Assembly: GCA_021414205.1 (NCBI GenBank)
Contig: JAIOOW010000003.1
Location: 64,048-128,047, forward strand
Source of the DNA: Candidatus Anderseniibacteriota bacterium
GTDB lineage: Bacteria > Patescibacteriota > Andersenbacteria > UBA10190
Direction: 5' to 3'
DNA: 64,000 nucleotides
Below are positions 7,395 to 63,380 of the stretch, piece after piece (the stretch's first letter is position 1; the number at the start of each line of letters is the position of its first letter). Both the position numbers and the translations under genes were made by a program. The notes under the pieces are model-generated. The model was not told the origin of the DNA. It did not search any database and saw only the letters and a program-made list of their open reading frames with translations.

Positions 7395-8564
7395 GTGTCG
7401 AACATACCAAAGAAATCGGCTGTTCACATGGCCTTCTTCGGTTTAATCGGTGCCATTGTGCTGCAGAGCCAGATTGTAGGTACTTCAGACGCAAGCTCCT
7501 TTCTTCATAAGTTTATTTCCGGAGATGAAGTGTCCGAAGGGCCGCTAAGTCCCACTGCATACGCACAGGGCACGTCCTTAAACGGGGCCGGAAGCAGATT
7601 ATCTTCTGTTGATGCAACGGACGCTAATTTTATTACATTCGACGATCCTGAAGTGCAATTTGCGCAAACACTTGAAGGAAATGCCGTTGTTGCTCCGATG
7701 CAGCCAGCTATTGATACTACTGACGGATCATCTACTGGCTCTACCGACGCATCAAGCGACAATTCTTCCAAATCTCAAAATACCCCCTCTGTACAAAAGC
7801 CATTTATTTATACTGTTGTAGACGGAGATACGATTGCGGGAATAGCTTCCAAATATAATATCAGCGCGAATACGATCCTTTCTGTAAACGGGCTCGGTTC
7901 AACTGACACAATTAAGTCTGGCGATCATTTGACGATTCTCCCAATAACTGGAGTCCTTCATACTGTAAAGAGTGGTGATACCGTCCTTAGTATTGCAAAT
8001 TCATATAATGCAAAGGCTACTGACATTGTTTCTGCGAACGGGCTCCAAGACAGCTCTAAGATAGCTCTTGGGCAGAAGCTGATTATTCCAAACGGTGATG
8101 CTCCGGTAGTGCAAGCTCCAAAGATCGTATCTGAGAATACGCAAACTGCCCGTGACTCAGGAGATGAGCCAACCCCGGCTCCTCAAAAAGAACAAGTAAA
8201 GACACCGAGCGGCTTTGGATGGCCCACTATTACCCATCATATTTCTCAATATTTTGGTCATGATGGGCATACCGGTATTGATATTGATAATCGATCAAAA
8301 CCACCCGTATTCGCGGCCCAAGACGGTACGGTTGAATTTGCTGGGTGGCTTGGTGCATACGGCAACTTGATTATTATCAATCATGGCAACGGATTAACGA
8401 CGTATTATGCTCACTTAACGAAGTTTTATGTGGCAAAGGGCGCAGCCGTAAAGAAAGGCGATGCAATCGCTAAGATGGGATCAACGGGGCATTCAACGGG
8501 ACCGCACGTACACTTCGAGGTTCGCAGATTCGGCGTGCCAATCAATCCTCTGGGGATGTATTAA
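7395..8564 (+). CDS. LysM-domain M23 family metallopeptidase (cell-wall hydrolase)
   Basis: Three LysM-like repeats (YTVVDGDTIAGIASKY, HTVKSGDTVLSIANSY). C-terminal M23 motifs HTGIDID and GSTGHSTGPHVHFEV. Confidence 0.85.
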   Translation: MSNIPKKSAVHMAFFGLIGAIVLQSQIVGTSDASSFLHKFISGDEVSEGPLSPTAYAQGTSLNGAGSRLSSVDATDANFITFDDPEVQFAQTLEGNAVVAPMQPAIDTTDGSSTGSTDASSDNSSKSQNTPSVQKPFIYTVVDGDTIAGIASKYNISANTILSVNGLGSTDTIKSGDHLTILPITGVLHTVKSGDTVLSIANSYNAKATDIVSANGLQDSSKIALGQKLIIPNGDAPVVQAPKIVSENTQTARDSGDEPTPAPQKEQVKTPSGFGWPTITHHISQYFGHDGHTGIDIDNRSKPPVFAAQDGTVEFAGWLGAYGNLIIINHGNGLTTYYAHLTKFYVAKGAAVKKGDAIAKMGSTGHSTGPHVHFEVRRFGVPINPLGMY

Positions 8565-16558: not shown

Positions 16559-16646
16559 CGCCGAGGAATGCTCATTAAAACGACGAACTTTCGACCGCAT
16601 ATGTGTTTTGTCACGATGCGGTTTTTTTATTTCCAAATTTTACGTA

Positions 16647-16677
16647 ATAAAAAATCCCCTTATCGGGGATCTTTATT
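16647..16677. terminator. bidirectional rho-independent terminator (rRNA operon end on minus strand; zinc-ribbon gene on plus strand)
   Basis: aaaaATCCCCttatcGGGGATctttatt: 6-bp GC-rich stem with an A-run on one side and a T-run on the other. Confidence 0.55.
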
Positions 16678-16694: not shown

Positions 16695-16812
16695 CAACGT
16701 ACGCGGCATCGGTCTACTCTTGCGAGAGTATTAATTCTCACTACCATCGACGCTGAAGAGCTTAACTGCTGTGTTCGGAATGGGAACAGGTGTTTCCCCT
16801 TCGCTTGAGACA
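16695..16812 (-). rRNA. rrf: 5S ribosomal RNA
   Basis: Reverse complement contains GGGGAAACACCTGTTCCCATTCCGAACACAGCAGTTAAGCTCTTCAGCGTCGATGGTAGTG (universal 5S core). Ends approximate. Confidence 0.7.
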
Positions 16813-17034
16813 CCGCGAACGCTGAACCGAATAGGTTCAAATTAGTATCATTGCTTGTTTTTCACCAAATAATAGAACGACCGTACATAGAGGGAAATAA
16901 TAATGCATTACTAGCCCTATGCTTTGCGTCTACATTCTGTGACATTGCCTTCCCTTTTACTAGACATAATAACTTATGTTTTGTTTGCGAGGAGCATGAA
17001 TCGTTATAACTCACGAGAAGTGAGATAAGCACGT

Positions 17035-20095
<3,061 letters not shown>

Positions 20096-20531
20096 ATGAC
20101 ACATGCACATATCTCACCTCTTGTCACAGTTTGGATTCGCATTGCTTAGAGCTAGTAATACATAATTACTTTCGCTCTATATTGTGATCGTTCGTATTAT
20201 TGGTTACTTCCGAAAAGATATCGATCTAATCGGGTTGCAATGATACTAATTTGAATTGTGAATGATCTGGCGTTTCAGAATATTATTGCAATCAACCCAC
20301 AGACAAAAAATACGTAATTCAGATATTTCTCATTCTCTGGATTGATTTTTGTCTAGAGGAACCGGAAAGATCGGGTTCGTAGATGATTTATGTAGTATAT
20401 GTGGATAAAAAACCCTGTCAAGGGGTGTTTGGGGAGAAATAAGCAAAAGACGGCCCACCTGGAGGTACCGTCTTGTTGCGTCTCTTGTAGACATGTGCTT
20501 TTGTGTTCCGCCAGGGGCGGAATCTCATGTC

Positions 20532-21242
20532 TTATAATCTCTTTCTGCCTGCAATATCGTGCTCTGCCTTTGCGAGCCACTTTGCTGCGAGGTCTTTACC
20601 TCCCAACCCGAATGCAAGGCCTCCTGCGATGGCTACCATCGCGAAGAATGCGGTAAGGATTGTTTGGATAAGCTGACTAGCTATCTGAAGTTGCAATAAT
20701 GCTGCAAAGAGGGCAAACACGAGGATTGACCACTTGCTGATTGCTGCAATTGCTCCACCACTGGTGAAGCCAGCAGCTTCAACTGCTGCGAGAACTGTAC
20801 GATATACAAAGTTCGCAAGAACTACGGAAATCACGAGGATTAGCGCAGCAATTACTACGTTTGGAATGTAATACAGAACTGATGTTAAGAATTCAGATAC
20901 CTGCACTAAACCGAGGATATCGGTTGCTGCAAGAAGCGAAACAATGATGAGGAACCACTTAAAGATTTCTCCAACAAGGTGCGCAATATCTAATCTTAAC
21001 CCTGCTTGTTCTACAGCTCGCTTTAATCCGCGCAATGACTCAAAGGCGGCATTAATTCGAACTAATACAAGTAATTTTTCGATCAATCGGCCTACTGCTA
21101 CTGCAATTGCCCATCCAACGAGGAATACGACGATAGCTGCGATCACGCTTGGAACGAAGCTGATAAATTGTACCCACAGGTCAGCAAGGGAATTTGTAAC
21201 GGCACCAGTCCAGACTGATAAGAAAGAATTGTACGTTGCCAT
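20532..21242 (-). CDS. hypothetical polytopic membrane protein (conserved-TM-helix repeat-like), located inside the 16S-23S spacer
   Basis: 236 aa with repeated hydrophobic helices and a good RBS (AAGGAGGTG) before the ATG. Confidence 0.55.
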   Translation of the reverse strand: MATYNSFLSVWTGAVTNSLADLWVQFISFVPSVIAAIVVFLVGWAIAVAVGRLIEKLLVLVRINAAFESLRGLKRAVEQAGLRLDIAHLVGEIFKWFLIIVSLLAATDILGLVQVSEFLTSVLYYIPNVVIAALILVISVVLANFVYRTVLAAVEAAGFTSGGAIAAISKWSILVFALFAALLQLQIASQLIQTILTAFFAMVAIAGGLAFGLGGKDLAAKWLAKAEHDIAGRKRL

Positions 21243-21354
21243 ATGTTCGACACCTCCTTTCTATTGGGGATTATGAAGGATAATCTGTATTGAGCGTATC
21301 GTTCTGACGAATATAAGTCAAAGGGCTGTTTGTGTAATTTGTCAGTGGCTTGTG

Positions 21355-21427
21355 TGGACCCCAGCGGATTCGAACCGCTCACCTCCTCGGTGCAAGCGAG
21401 GCGCTCTACCAAATGAGCTAGGGGCCC
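21355..21427 (-). tRNA. tRNA-Ala (anticodon UGC)
   Basis: Reverse complement GGGCCCCTAGCTCATTTGGTAGAGCGCCTCGCTTGCACCGAGGAGGTGAGCGGTTCGAATCCGCTGGGGTCCA. Has the G3:U70 pair, anticodon loop CTTGCAC, and CCA is not encoded. Confidence 0.85.
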
Positions 21428-21474
21428 TTTTATCTATGCATAGTATTAAAGCGGTTTATATCCCGCTTTGCAAG

Positions 21475-21726
21475 TTATTTCTGCCCGTTTGGCAAGAATT
21501 GGCCGATTGTAAGGTAGAAGAATGCTTGGAAGATGCCGAACGCAACGAGGAATCCGAGGAACAATAAAATAACTCCTGCTAGCTTCCAGTGTTCGAGGCT
21601 CGATCCTTTTAGCCCAAACATTGCGCCTATATCTCCCCAGTTCTCATCCCACCACGCTGTCTTCCAGACCATGGAAAATCCGGCTGCCATCATGATTGCT
21701 CCGAGAAAGAAAAGTAGGAAACTCAT
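21475..21726 (-). CDS. hypothetical small 2-TM membrane protein (in rRNA spacer)
   Basis: 83 aa with two hydrophobic helices and the WWDENWGD loop. Confidence 0.4.
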   Translation of the reverse strand: MSFLLFFLGAIMMAAGFSMVWKTAWWDENWGDIGAMFGLKGSSLEHWKLAGVILLFLGFLVAFGIFQAFFYLTIGQFLPNGQK

Positions 21727-21744
21727 ACGAATATTGTATCACAA

Positions 21745-23217
21745 TTATACGTGGTATTTTCGTTTTATTTCTTCCTCCTGCTTTTTTTCCGCATCTTCTA
21801 TTGCGGATTCTCCCAGTTTTTTAAGTTCTTCAGGGGTTTTTTCTTGTAGTAGTTTTGCTTGTTCTAGTAAATACTGTTTATCGTTTTTCTTAGGGTCTTC
21901 TAATACTTCTGCTAACAGTGCGTGGAGGATACCGCCGATCATCGGCCCGGGCCGAAGGCCGAGCTCGTGAATTAAGTCGTTCCCGGTAACGGCTAATTGG
22001 CCTACGGAAATAGGTTCTTTGCTGGCTTGTTCGACCATAAACTGCAAATGCCGCAGGCGATATGGCTCTGCTTTCGGCACCCCGGAACCTTTTCTCTCTG
22101 CGATGCGAAGCTTAATTAAGTCATCAAAATTGTCTTTGCCCACTCTGCGAAGCAGTCTCCGTGCTCCTGCCGGCGTTACTTTGCCCACATCATAGAAGAA
22201 CATATGGTGGCGAATGAGATGTGTCACCGTTTTTGTCAGATCTTTTGGAAATTTTAATCGATCCATGAGTAACTCTGTCATGCGAGCGCCTACGATATCG
22301 TGTCCGTAAAACGTATAGTCGCCGTTTGCGAATCGCCTGGTTCGAGGTTTCCCGATGTCATGAAAGAGTGCCGCGATGCGAACGTGCATGGAGTAGTTAA
22401 ATTCCACGGCAAATTGCAGTGATTTTATGGAGTGTTCAAATACGGTGTACACGTGGTGCTTGTTTTGGGTGATCCCCACGCCCTCCTCCAGCTCGGGCAA
22501 TATCATCGCCAACAGCCCCGTTTTCTGGAGCAGGTTCATGGCAGGTTCAGGGCTGGGGCTCATAATAATTTTTATAAATTCATCGCGGATTCGTTCGTGC
22601 GACACCGCTTCAATTGCTGGTGCATATTCCGTTATTGCGCGTAGGGTATATTCCTCAATTTCAAATCCTAGCTGGGCAGAGAAGCGAATTGCGCGCATTA
22701 AGCGAAGCGCATCTTCTGCGAATCGTTCGCTGGGGTTTCCAACTGCGCGGATAACTTGAGTATGCAAATCCTTTAATCCGCCGAAGGGGTCGATGATCGT
22801 CATGCCGTCCATACTGACCGTATCGTTGTGCGGCGAAGCGTCTGTTATTGGCGCAAGTGCCATTGCGTTAATCGTAAAATCTCGACGTGCCAAATCCTCG
22901 CGAATACTTTTAGTGAACGTCACGGAGTCAGGGTGGCGCTGGTCGTTATAGTCCGCGTCGATGCGGTATGTAGTAACTTCAATTTCTTGTATTTTTTCAG
23001 ATCCAGTCCGAACTGTTACTGTTCCAAACGTATTTGTATAAAACGAATTGGGAAAAACTATCTGGATTTCTTCTGGGTTTGCAGAGGTGGTTACATCCCA
23101 ATCTTTTGGTTCTTTACCCAGTAACAAATCTCGCACGCATCCGCCCACGGTATACGCTTCAAATCCAGCTGCATTCAGCTTAGTAATAACGTCTTGTACT
23201 TCAGAAGGAAGTTGCAT
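21745..23217 (-). CDS. cca: CCA-adding enzyme (tRNA nucleotidyltransferase) with C-terminal HD domain
   Basis: GGCVRDLLLGKEPKDWDVTT polymerase-beta head motif and HD motif HDIGKP. 490 aa. Confidence 0.85.
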   Translation of the reverse strand: MQLPSEVQDVITKLNAAGFEAYTVGGCVRDLLLGKEPKDWDVTTSANPEEIQIVFPNSFYTNTFGTVTVRTGSEKIQEIEVTTYRIDADYNDQRHPDSVTFTKSIREDLARRDFTINAMALAPITDASPHNDTVSMDGMTIIDPFGGLKDLHTQVIRAVGNPSERFAEDALRLMRAIRFSAQLGFEIEEYTLRAITEYAPAIEAVSHERIRDEFIKIIMSPSPEPAMNLLQKTGLLAMILPELEEGVGITQNKHHVYTVFEHSIKSLQFAVEFNYSMHVRIAALFHDIGKPRTRRFANGDYTFYGHDIVGARMTELLMDRLKFPKDLTKTVTHLIRHHMFFYDVGKVTPAGARRLLRRVGKDNFDDLIKLRIAERKGSGVPKAEPYRLRHLQFMVEQASKEPISVGQLAVTGNDLIHELGLRPGPMIGGILHALLAEVLEDPKKNDKQYLLEQAKLLQEKTPEELKKLGESAIEDAEKKQEEEIKRKYHV

Positions 23218-23245
23218 CGGTATCAGTATAACATTGTTGTATGAG

Positions 23246-23322
23246 TGGTGCGCGTGCCAAGACTCGAACTTGGGACCTCTACATTATCAGTGTAGCGCTC
23301 TAACCGGCTGAGCTACACGCGC
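23246..23322 (-). tRNA. tRNA-Ile (anticodon GAU), 3' CCA encoded
   Basis: Reverse complement GCGCGTGTAGCTCAGCCGGTTAGAGCGCTACACTGATAATGTAGAGGTCCCAAGTTCGAGTCTTGGCACGCGCACCA, anticodon loop CTGATAA. Confidence 0.85.
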
Positions 23323-23607
23323 GTAACATATAGTAAACAGTATTAGGGTGTTTTTTACAAGAAAAAACAGCCCAATATGAGCCGTTTTCTCTAGCAGTTT
23401 CTCTGCGAAACTTAGCGCGATTGTAAAGGTTTACCGTTTTTTCATACCGCATGTGTTAAAGGGAAGGTATGATTTCCGCTTATTCTCAAATGAATTTTGA
23501 CTCGTTCCTCTAAAAATGTAATGAAACACTGATAGATTACAAGCCTCGACATCTAGGCGCTTTCGTGATGGCCGTAGCCATCGGTTGAAAGGCGTTGTAT
23601 CCCTAGA

Positions 23608-25108
<1,501 letters not shown>

Positions 25109-25124
25109 TATTGACTTAAGAATC

Positions 25125-25150: not shown

Positions 25151-25267
25151 CTTTACAATCGCGCAAAATTGCGCAGATTCATCCATGTCAAATTCCGCAA
25201 TTTGCATGGTCTAGATTGGAAAAGTTCGGTCAATCAATCAAAAAAGACTGATACAGTCGTATAAAGC

Positions 25268-25295
25268 AGTATAGCTGGGTAAAAAGAGATGTCAA
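25268..25295 (-). promoter_or_regulatory. candidate rRNA operon promoter (TTGACA, 16 nt, TATACT on minus strand)
   Basis: Reverse complement reads gTTGACAtctctttttacccagcTATACTgc. It abuts the stop codon of the upstream DUF212 gene. Confidence 0.4.
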
Positions 25296-33628: not shown

Positions 33629-33701
33629 GGGCCCGTAGCTCAGTGGTTAGAGCGGTACTCTTATAAGGTACATGTCGGAGGTTCGATCCCTCCCGGGCCT
33701 A
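33629..33701 (+). tRNA. tRNA-Ile (anticodon UAU)
   Basis: GGGCCCGTAGCTCAGTGGTTAGAGCGGTACTCTTATAAGGTACATGTCGGAGGTTCGATCCCTCCCGGGCCTA. Anticodon stem GTACT/GGTAC, loop CTTATAA. Confidence 0.7.
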
Positions 33702-33733
33702 CTCGAAGTATTTAAGTCGCGTTCGGATACTTT

Positions 33734-63350: not shown

Positions 63351-63380
63351 TTGACAAGTACGGTATTTTCTGTTTATAAT
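63351..63380 (+). promoter_or_regulatory. near-consensus sigma70 promoter (TTGACA, 18 nt, TATAAT)
   Basis: ttgaca at 63351-56, tataat at 63375-80, followed by RBS AAAAGGAGG at about 63430 and the GTG-start ORF. Confidence 0.5.

Follow-up and report, generated by a model that had tools for sequence, protein, structure and literature searches.

How are ribosomal RNA (rRNA) genes expressed when protein-coding genes, among them the one for the CCA-adding enzyme, stand between 16S and 23S? The question is raised by a stretch of 64,000 nucleotides (nt) from a Candidatus Anderseniibacteriota bacterium (contig JAIOOW010000003.1, positions 64,048 to 128,047), called the window in what follows, where the cca gene, two further protein genes and two tRNA genes occupy the space between the rRNA genes. 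An earlier note on this DNA had proposed that everything from 16S to 5S could form one transcript, the enzyme then being made from the precursor that carries its own tRNA substrates. The analysis described here makes a different arrangement probable, namely a split rRNA operon with separate transcription units, at least three in number, in which the mRNAs of cca and of a small neighbour, p83, would be leaderless. The CCA-adding enzyme is probably made from its own leaderless mRNA, perhaps in part from read-through starting at the tRNA-Ile promoter, and probably not from an mRNA cut out of an rRNA precursor.

The 16S and 23S genes lie on one strand, 3507 nt apart by their Rfam boundaries, as the earlier figure of about 3.5 kb had indicated, and the order on the minus strand is 16S, tRNA-Ile(GAU), cca, p83, tRNA-Ala(UGC), tm236, 23S and 5S. 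This anatomy had already been read from the sequence, with p83 as a protein with two transmembrane segments, and it was recovered by Rfam, ARAGORN, open reading frames (ORFs) and Pfam:

23607-25112, minus strand: 16S rRNA, full length (Rfam, 1423 bits)
23246-23322, minus strand: tRNA-Ile(GAU), with encoded CCA (Rfam, ARAGORN)
21745-23217, minus strand: cca, class II tRNA nucleotidyltransferase with HD domain, 490 amino acids (Pfam, NCBIfam, structure-relative alignment)
21475-21726, minus strand: p83, 83 amino acids with two hydrophobic segments (ORF and hydrophobicity)
21354-21427, minus strand: tRNA-Ala(UGC), without encoded CCA (Rfam, ARAGORN)
20532-21242, minus strand: tm236, polytopic membrane protein of 236 amino acids (PF05552, MS_channel_1st_1, E = 7e-18)
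17035-20099, minus strand: 23S rRNA (Rfam)
16701-16817, minus strand: 5S rRNA (Rfam)

For comparison, ten further independent Andersenbacteria assemblies were added to the window, the additions being L002-L007 from GTDB genomes and L082-L086 from JGI, NCBI and ENA contigs, which gives 11 loci. The gene order is identical in 11/11 loci, the assemblies stem from different studies, and identity ranges across relatives from 63 to 96% for cca and from 83 to 99.6% for 16S. Not only this order and its conservation but also the presence and conservation of the following sequence signals are direct observations:

25268-25295, minus strand: P16S, TTGACA-16-TATACT, upstream of 16S (promoter scan; hexamers kept in 6/6 relatives covering the region)
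25213-25227, minus strand: boxA-like element GAACTTTTCCAATCT of the 16S leader (conserved alignment block)
25151-25178, minus strand: 5' strand of the 16S processing stem (pairs with 23428-23402)
23402-23428, minus strand: 3' strand of the 16S processing stem (pairs with 25178-25151)
23359-23388, minus strand: T1, intrinsic-terminator-like hairpin and U-run after 16S (folding, z = -4.0 for the region)
23332-23360, minus strand: P-Ile, TTGTAA-17-TTTACT, ending 9 nt before the 5' end of tRNA-Ile (TTGCAA/TTGTAA and TTTACT/TTTAAT kept in relatives)
23225-23233, minus strand: Pcca, extended -10 box TGtTATACT, 7 nt before the cca ATG, with no Shine-Dalgarno (SD) sequence
21733-21741, minus strand: Pp83, extended -10 box TGaTACAAT, 6 nt before the p83 ATG (equivalents in 9 relatives)
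21445-21473, minus strand: P-Ala, TTGCAA-17-TTTAAT, upstream of tRNA-Ala (hexamers conserved, intervening spacer varies)
21293-21321, minus strand: Ptm236, TTGACT-17-TACGCT (conserved in an alignment of 12 loci)
21251-21281, minus strand: 5' untranslated region (UTR) of tm236, with a conserved, anti-SD-like ATCCTTCA upstream of an invariant SD GAAAGGAGGTG
20437-20472, minus strand: T2, intrinsic-terminator-like hairpin and U-run after tm236 (folding, z = -4.05)
20394-20421, minus strand: P23S, TTGACA-16-TATACT, about 295 nt upstream of 23S (promoter scan; conservation)
20100-20388, minus strand: 23S leader of 289 nt, which includes the 5' strand of the 23S processing stem and, at 20267-20253, a boxA-like element
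16646-16674, minus strand: T3, terminator after 5S (terminator scan and folding)

Their role as promoters and terminators, and the lack of leaders on the cca and p83 mRNAs, we infer from the sequence. In the scheme so obtained, this would be the single rRNA locus of an Andersenbacteria (Patescibacteria/CPR) genome, in which an ancestral 16S-tRNAIle-tRNAAla-23S-5S operon has been broken by genes settling between its parts. The first unit would run from P16S through the boxA-like leader and 16S into the trailer, which closes the processing stem, and would end at T1. In the second, a promoter-like box precedes every gene and no terminator lies inside: P-Ile would serve tRNA-Ile, one -10 box the leaderless cca and another the leaderless p83, and P-Ala tRNA-Ala, while transcription from Ptm236 would continue through the SD-containing 5' UTR and tm236 to T2. 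The third unit would comprise P23S, the 289-nt boxA-like leader, 23S, the spacer which pairs with this leader, 5S and T3. Such a transcription map yields concrete, testable predictions, with transcription start sites expected near 25261 and 20387 and at the start codons of cca and p83.

A first body of evidence for the split concerns the rRNA units. The promoter scan gave two top-scoring sites with identical hexamers, and these are P16S, already proposed in the earlier note and present at 25295-25268, and P23S. The pattern TTGACA-N16-18-TATAMT occurs at 3 sites in 64 kb, against 0.04 expected, two of which precede 16S and 23S; the third near-consensus match (TTGACA-18-TATAAT) is found on the plus strand at 63351-63380. 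Moreover, P23S is kept in 10/10 relatives (as TATAGT in L086) and the sequence upstream of it cannot be aligned; since the site is kept while its flanks diverge, it shows the footprint expected of a functional promoter. As regards termination, a hairpin followed by a U-run is found between 16S and tRNA-Ile in 11/11 loci, at +182 to +243 after 16S in ten of them, the exception being L006, where it stands directly before tRNA-Ile. In the window, T1 (about 220 nt after 16S) directly follows the 3' strand of the 16S processing stem. The T1 stems of different loci are not homologous (AAAACGGCTCA.., AAGCGGCGTG.., AACCCGGG.., GGCCGCCC..), and it is therefore the structure, not the sequence, which is conserved. 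Equivalents of T2, which is placed downstream of the tm236 stop codon and immediately upstream of P23S, occur in 10/11 loci, 50-90 nt past that stop.

Both terminators were detected by folding together with a lenient scan for hairpins and U-runs; a standard terminator scan missed both, probably because their stems run into A/U tracts. The lenient scan gives 1-12 hits per spacer, some of them in coding regions or on the opposite strand, and only positions recurring across loci were used. It was also observed that terminator U-runs extend into the -35 box of the promoter that follows (e.g. ...GGGCTGTTTTTTCTTGTAA). Such fusions of terminator and promoter are seen in the window at 23388-23332 and 20472-20394, upstream of tm236 in L005, L006 and L085, and altogether at several junctions in all relatives.

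The processing signals are divided in the same way. A 27-bp helix joins the 16S leader (25178-25151) to the trailer (23428-23402), and in L086 the same stem is built from different sequence. The energy of this duplex is no better than that of cross-controls, so that the call rests on the helix itself, on shuffle controls and on the alternative sequence in L086. For 23S, leader positions 114-288 pair with the entire 23S-5S spacer at -115 kcal/mol, compared with -51 to -60 for the cross-controls, with all of the stem's 5' strand downstream of P23S. Since the 16S and 23S stems close inside their own units, each rRNA unit is self-contained. In addition, the alignment shows a boxA-like block conserved in both rRNA leaders, blocks which we take to resemble the boxA of E. 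coli.

Within the middle unit, the product of cca is best read as a bona fide CCA-adding enzyme. It contains the PolyA_pol head, PolyA_pol_RNAbd, HD and tRNA_NucTran2_2 domains, matching PF01743 (2e-36) and PF12627 (6e-21), and its best solved relatives are the CCA-adding enzymes of Planococcus (E = 7e-56) and Geobacillus (9e-52). In the alignment with the Planococcus enzyme (6ibp), GGxVRDxxLG..D.D, RRDFTINA and EDALRxxRAIRF, presumably the catalytic and templating motifs named A-D, are kept, and the flexible loop is not deleted. Among NCBIfam models, NF009814 (284.8 bits) scores slightly short of its cut-off of 290 and TIGR02692 (290.2 bits) well short of its cut-off of 438.8, and A-adding and PcnB models score far lower. 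The nearest homologues are annotated as Candidatus Andersenbacteria or Patescibacteria.

A TATAAT-like box (at least 5/6 positions) stands 6-7 nt before the cca ATG in 10/11 Andersenbacteria loci, an SD-like string in 1/11, and this suggests that an extended -10 promoter drives transcription of a leaderless mRNA. The p83 mRNA may well be of the same kind, as suggested by a -10 box at the same spacing and no SD; in some relatives this box overlaps the stop codon of cca. Over the whole window, a -10 box with an ATG 6-7 nt behind it occurs 18 times, and in 11 of these cases the ATG starts an ORF of 60 amino acids or more, compared with a background of 23%; leaderless mRNAs appear to be common in this genome. 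A TGnTATAAT-like box at 6-7 nt, again without SD, was noted at the minus-strand starts 4111, 8929, 14760, 26380 (trmD), 39087 and 44241 and at the plus-strand start 59419. As to its distribution, p83 is present in all Andersenbacteria loci (43-99% identity), absent from 74 other Patescibacteria loci, whose cca identity is at most 55%, and without a match in Pfam or NCBIfam.

Unlike cca and p83, which lack an SD and have a -10 box close to their start codons, tm236 is preceded by an SD that does not vary between loci. Its product carries conserved transmembrane-helix repeats of the MscS type and at least four hydrophobic segments, and scores 73.5 bits against NF033912, below the cut-off of 100. 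Where relatives have extra inserted genes, a terminator immediately precedes Ptm236. The element ATCCTTCA, about 15 nt upstream of GAAAGGAGGTG and with equivalent positions in 11 relatives, resembles the 16S anti-SD, and the two could form a hairpin that sequesters the SD; both strands are invariant and show no covariation. A permissive Rfam search of 20000-23700 returned the two tRNAs and the rRNA ends, and no riboswitch or known leader RNA. A Plastid-ycf2 match antisense to tRNA-Ile (34 bits, cut-off 65.7) was treated as an artefact.

The window contains 15 tRNA genes, 14 of which lack an encoded CCA, so that CCA-adding activity must exist in the cell, and it is reasonable, judging from these genes, to regard cca as essential. 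In this respect the earlier note was right that the enzyme matters here and that tRNA-Ile(GAU) alone in the window encodes its CCA; its count of 13 out of 14 has to be replaced by 14 out of 15. The encoded CCA of tRNA-Ile itself was rejected as a conserved signal: it is found in 3/11 loci (the window, L002 and L004), the other eight being without it, and, not being conserved, it needs no special explanation.

The best-surviving alternative, to which we give a substantial though minority chance, holds that the middle unit is a tRNA operon. From tRNA-Ile to tm236 the genes would be largely co-transcribed from P-Ile, the internal boxes being supplementary, and a substantial share of cca mRNA would be released from a tRNA-containing precursor by tRNA-processing nucleases, all of which is compatible with the split of the rRNA genes. 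It draws on the compact loci, where the scan for hairpins and U-runs gave no recurrent terminator between tRNA-Ile and tm236, so that the block may also yield overlapping read-through transcripts, and on the habits of cca elsewhere in Patescibacteria, where the gene abuts tRNAs. A tRNA gene, almost always tRNA-Arg, lies within 300 nt upstream of cca in 44/68 other Patescibacteria loci, and a same-strand tRNA-Pro within 300 nt downstream in 29/69 (CGG in 27, GGG in 2), starting only 2-12 nt after the cca stop in some 15 loci. In loci whose upstream tRNA lies far off or in divergent orientation, a -10 box is found 5-9 nt before the cca ATG in 29/62 loci and an SD in 0/62. In ten loci (L012, L019, L022, L027, L034, L038, L039, L052, L062 and L071, with cca at about position 8001 in most; L019, L022 and L027 are from Yanofskybacteria-type genomes), the end of a tRNA-Arg on the same strand is only 5-12 nt from the ATG, with a -10 box in 0/10 and no SD, and most of these loci have readable promoter-like boxes (-35/-10 or extended -10) ahead of the tRNA-Arg. 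With this short gap devoid of a -10 box, cca would seemingly have to be co-transcribed with tRNA-Arg in these ten loci, and tRNA 3' processing would create a nearly leaderless 5' end of cca. In the same loci tRNA-Pro(CGG) often stands 2-5 nt after the cca stop and is followed by tRNA-Ala(CGC).

What favours an independent start of cca in the window and its relatives is the -10 box itself: as 10/11 Andersenbacteria loci keep it at leaderless distance, selection for such a start is indicated. Furthermore, several relatives have extra genes and terminators inserted within the block. In the window, tRNA-Ile and cca are separated by 28 nt holding the extended -10 box, a layout other than that of tRNA punctuation, and with its own box and this gap cca does not require punctuation. 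A weaker form of the idea put forward in the earlier note nevertheless survives, since cca adjoins tRNA genes throughout Patescibacteria: its expression may be tied to tRNA precursors across the phylum, while the cca of the window has its own start. In Paceibacteria-type lineages there would be an operon of promoter, tRNAArg, cca, tRNAPro and tRNAAla with gaps of 2-12 nt, whose mRNA ends are cut by tRNA nucleases. If this is true, the supply of the CCA-adding enzyme would be tied to tRNA transcription, as almost no tRNA gene of the window encodes CCA, and a bacterial version of mitochondrial tRNA punctuation would give a leaderless cca mRNA. That the adjacency is a selected Patescibacteria trait and no accident of synteny, re-created in Andersenbacteria with the spacer tRNAs and thereby splitting the rRNA operon, we put forward only as a tentative suggestion, less likely than not.

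The model of a single precursor from P16S to the terminator after 5S, out of which the mRNAs of cca, p83 and tm236 and both tRNAs would be excised, is improbable. All features are co-oriented in the canonical order 16S-tRNAIle-tRNAAla-23S-5S, and the terminator which the model needs after 5S is indeed present (16674-16646); boxA-like elements and NusB, encoded nearby (30514-30077), could aid read-through. It is opposed by the conserved T1, T2 and P23S, all missed when the model was proposed, by a promoter box at each gene and by processing stems closed within their own units. The claim of one transcript is thus not supported, and neither is an origin of cca mRNA from the rRNA precursor.

The variation found in relatives speaks the same language. 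In L086 tRNA-Ala is inverted, as verified in the sequence. In L083 the stretch from tRNA-Ala to tm236 takes in genes for a methyltransferase and an epimerase, both on the opposite strand, and the spacer of L085 includes one additional gene, for a phosphoribosyltransferase. Four loci (L002, L005, L006 and L083) carry 500-700 extra nt between 16S and tRNA-Ile, and in L002, L005 and L083 this insert ends in a second terminator, so that it lies between T1 and that terminator. Inversions, opposite-strand genes and inserts of this kind would not be tolerated if the region had to remain a single rRNA precursor. In L002 the insert extends from +238 to +700 after 16S, and in L083 it contains small ORFs of 50 and 96 amino acids.

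Several considerations weigh against a split into separate units. Every promoter and terminator on which it depends is a prediction, and Pcca and Pp83 have no -35 element, consisting of an extended -10 box alone. In the window all spacer genes are on one strand; with this co-orientation, boxA-like leaders on both rRNA units and NusB nearby, partial read-through of T1 and T2 is conceivable, and an antitermination-modified polymerase from P16S could pass them in part. Lastly, tRNA-Ile, cca, p83, tRNA-Ala and tm236 follow each other in compact loci without a separating terminator, so that tRNA/cca co-transcripts are possible.

An assembly artefact, by which a chimeric join or a collapsed repeat would have put unrelated genes between the rRNA genes, can be dismissed for practical purposes: metagenome assemblies classically break or misjoin at rRNA genes and many cca homologues sit on very short contigs, but a Logan contig from SRR15633504, the product of a separate assembly, matches 23303-19750, from tRNA-Ile to 23S, at 100% identity, and the ten further assemblies show the same order, 16S through 5S being spanned in 4 relatives on contigs of 64-699 kb (those of L085 and L086 measure 576-699 kb). 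It follows that the join is genuine and of long standing, not a chimera, and the comparison of synteny suggested in the earlier note bears out the layout. The surroundings are syntenic too, with RNase HII, NusB, RNase III (30074-29367), SMC, S16, KH, TrmD and DUF212 upstream and IF2 and RbfA downstream. A position of cca between rRNA genes in Patescibacteria generally was considered and rejected: no rRNA was found within 8 kb of cca in any of the 74 more distant loci, and the arrangement is therefore specific to Andersenbacteria.

Some further observations concern the other tRNA and rRNA genes. In the window, tRNA-Ile(UAU) (33629-33702, plus strand) is divergent from tRNA-Val(GAC) (33577-33504) across a 51-nt gap; tRNA-Ile(UAU) is uncommon in bacteria, which usually rely on a CAU tRNA modified by TilS. 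AC is found at -2/-1 in 7/15 window tRNAs, and 8/15 have a hexamer resembling a -10 box at a distance of 7-9 nt from the mature 5' end, even inside tight clusters with 11-15-nt spacers (e.g. 42753-42410). Transcripts of tRNAs may conceivably start almost without a leader, a suggestion weakened by the absence of this hexamer peak from the tRNAs of relatives. Large rRNA insertions, a trait described for bacteria of the Candidate Phyla Radiation (CPR), occur in 23S of L007 (2716-7622) and L085 (14010-18289), in 16S of L084 (7351-9632) and in 23S of L005, L083 and L086, some of them with LAGLIDADG ORFs. The 16S of the window is free of insertions, and the 23S exceeds the length of the Rfam model by only some 140 nt.

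These results offer a clade-wide view, at sequence level, of a compact CPR genome which dismantles its rRNA operon and yet keeps the gene order. The changes, as predicted from the sequence, comprise one terminator behind 16S and another ahead of 23S, an additional rRNA promoter followed by a boxA-like leader, and tightly packed promoters, one per inserted gene. To this are added a clade-wide link between cca and tRNA genes and, by implication, tRNA-punctuated leaderless cca mRNA in some Patescibacteria. In practical terms, rRNA "spacers" of Andersenbacteria hold real genes and should be annotated with care, and linkage of 16S and 23S should not be assumed in binning or in designing analyses based on the internal transcribed spacer. 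A literature search in a limited collection gave nothing on cca in an rRNA spacer, leaderless Patescibacteria genes or Andersenbacteria rRNA operons, which is weak evidence of novelty.

Units combining tRNA and mRNA are well known, such as the thrU-tyrU-glyT-thrT-tufB operon of E. coli and the punctuation of mitochondrial transcripts by tRNAs. As in the tufB operon, a translation-related protein gene stands among tRNA genes; unlike there, the cca of the window begins 28 nt beyond tRNA-Ile and is provided with a -10 box. With the E. coli type of rrn operon the locus shares the gene order, tRNA-Ile(GAU) and tRNA-Ala(UGC), boxA-like elements both in the leader and ahead of 23S, and long stems between leader and trailer that would suit RNase III. 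It differs in a spacer of 3.5 kb with three protein genes, in conserved terminators after 16S and before 23S and in a full second promoter before 23S, and so departs from the canonical single precursor, with its short, tRNA-only spacer free of internal terminators and promoters.

The locus is an instance of the already reported unlinked rRNA genes, defined by a 16S-23S gap of more than 1500 bp and described as common and phylogenetically conserved in Patescibacteria/CPR (Brewer et al., bioRxiv 10.1101/705046). The distance (3507 nt in the window, 2.7-7.0 kb in relatives) and its conservation as a trait of the clade agree with that description. What differs is that the Andersenbacteria genes stay close, co-oriented and in canonical order, that both spacer tRNAs are kept at their ancestral positions, and that cca, p83 and tm236 form a conserved set. 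The closest experimentally studied analogue is Borrelia burgdorferi, where RT-PCR (reverse transcription-polymerase chain reaction) distinguished three transcripts, 16S-tRNAAla, tRNAIle and 23S-5S (Bugrysheva et al. 2011, PMC3037291), a division like the one predicted here. There too 16S and 23S-5S lie a few kb apart, with tRNA-Ala and tRNA-Ile between them, but the two tRNAs stand in another order, other genes intervene, and Borrelia carries 23S-5S in duplicate. Separate transcription, demonstrated in Borrelia burgdorferi, is in Andersenbacteria a prediction.

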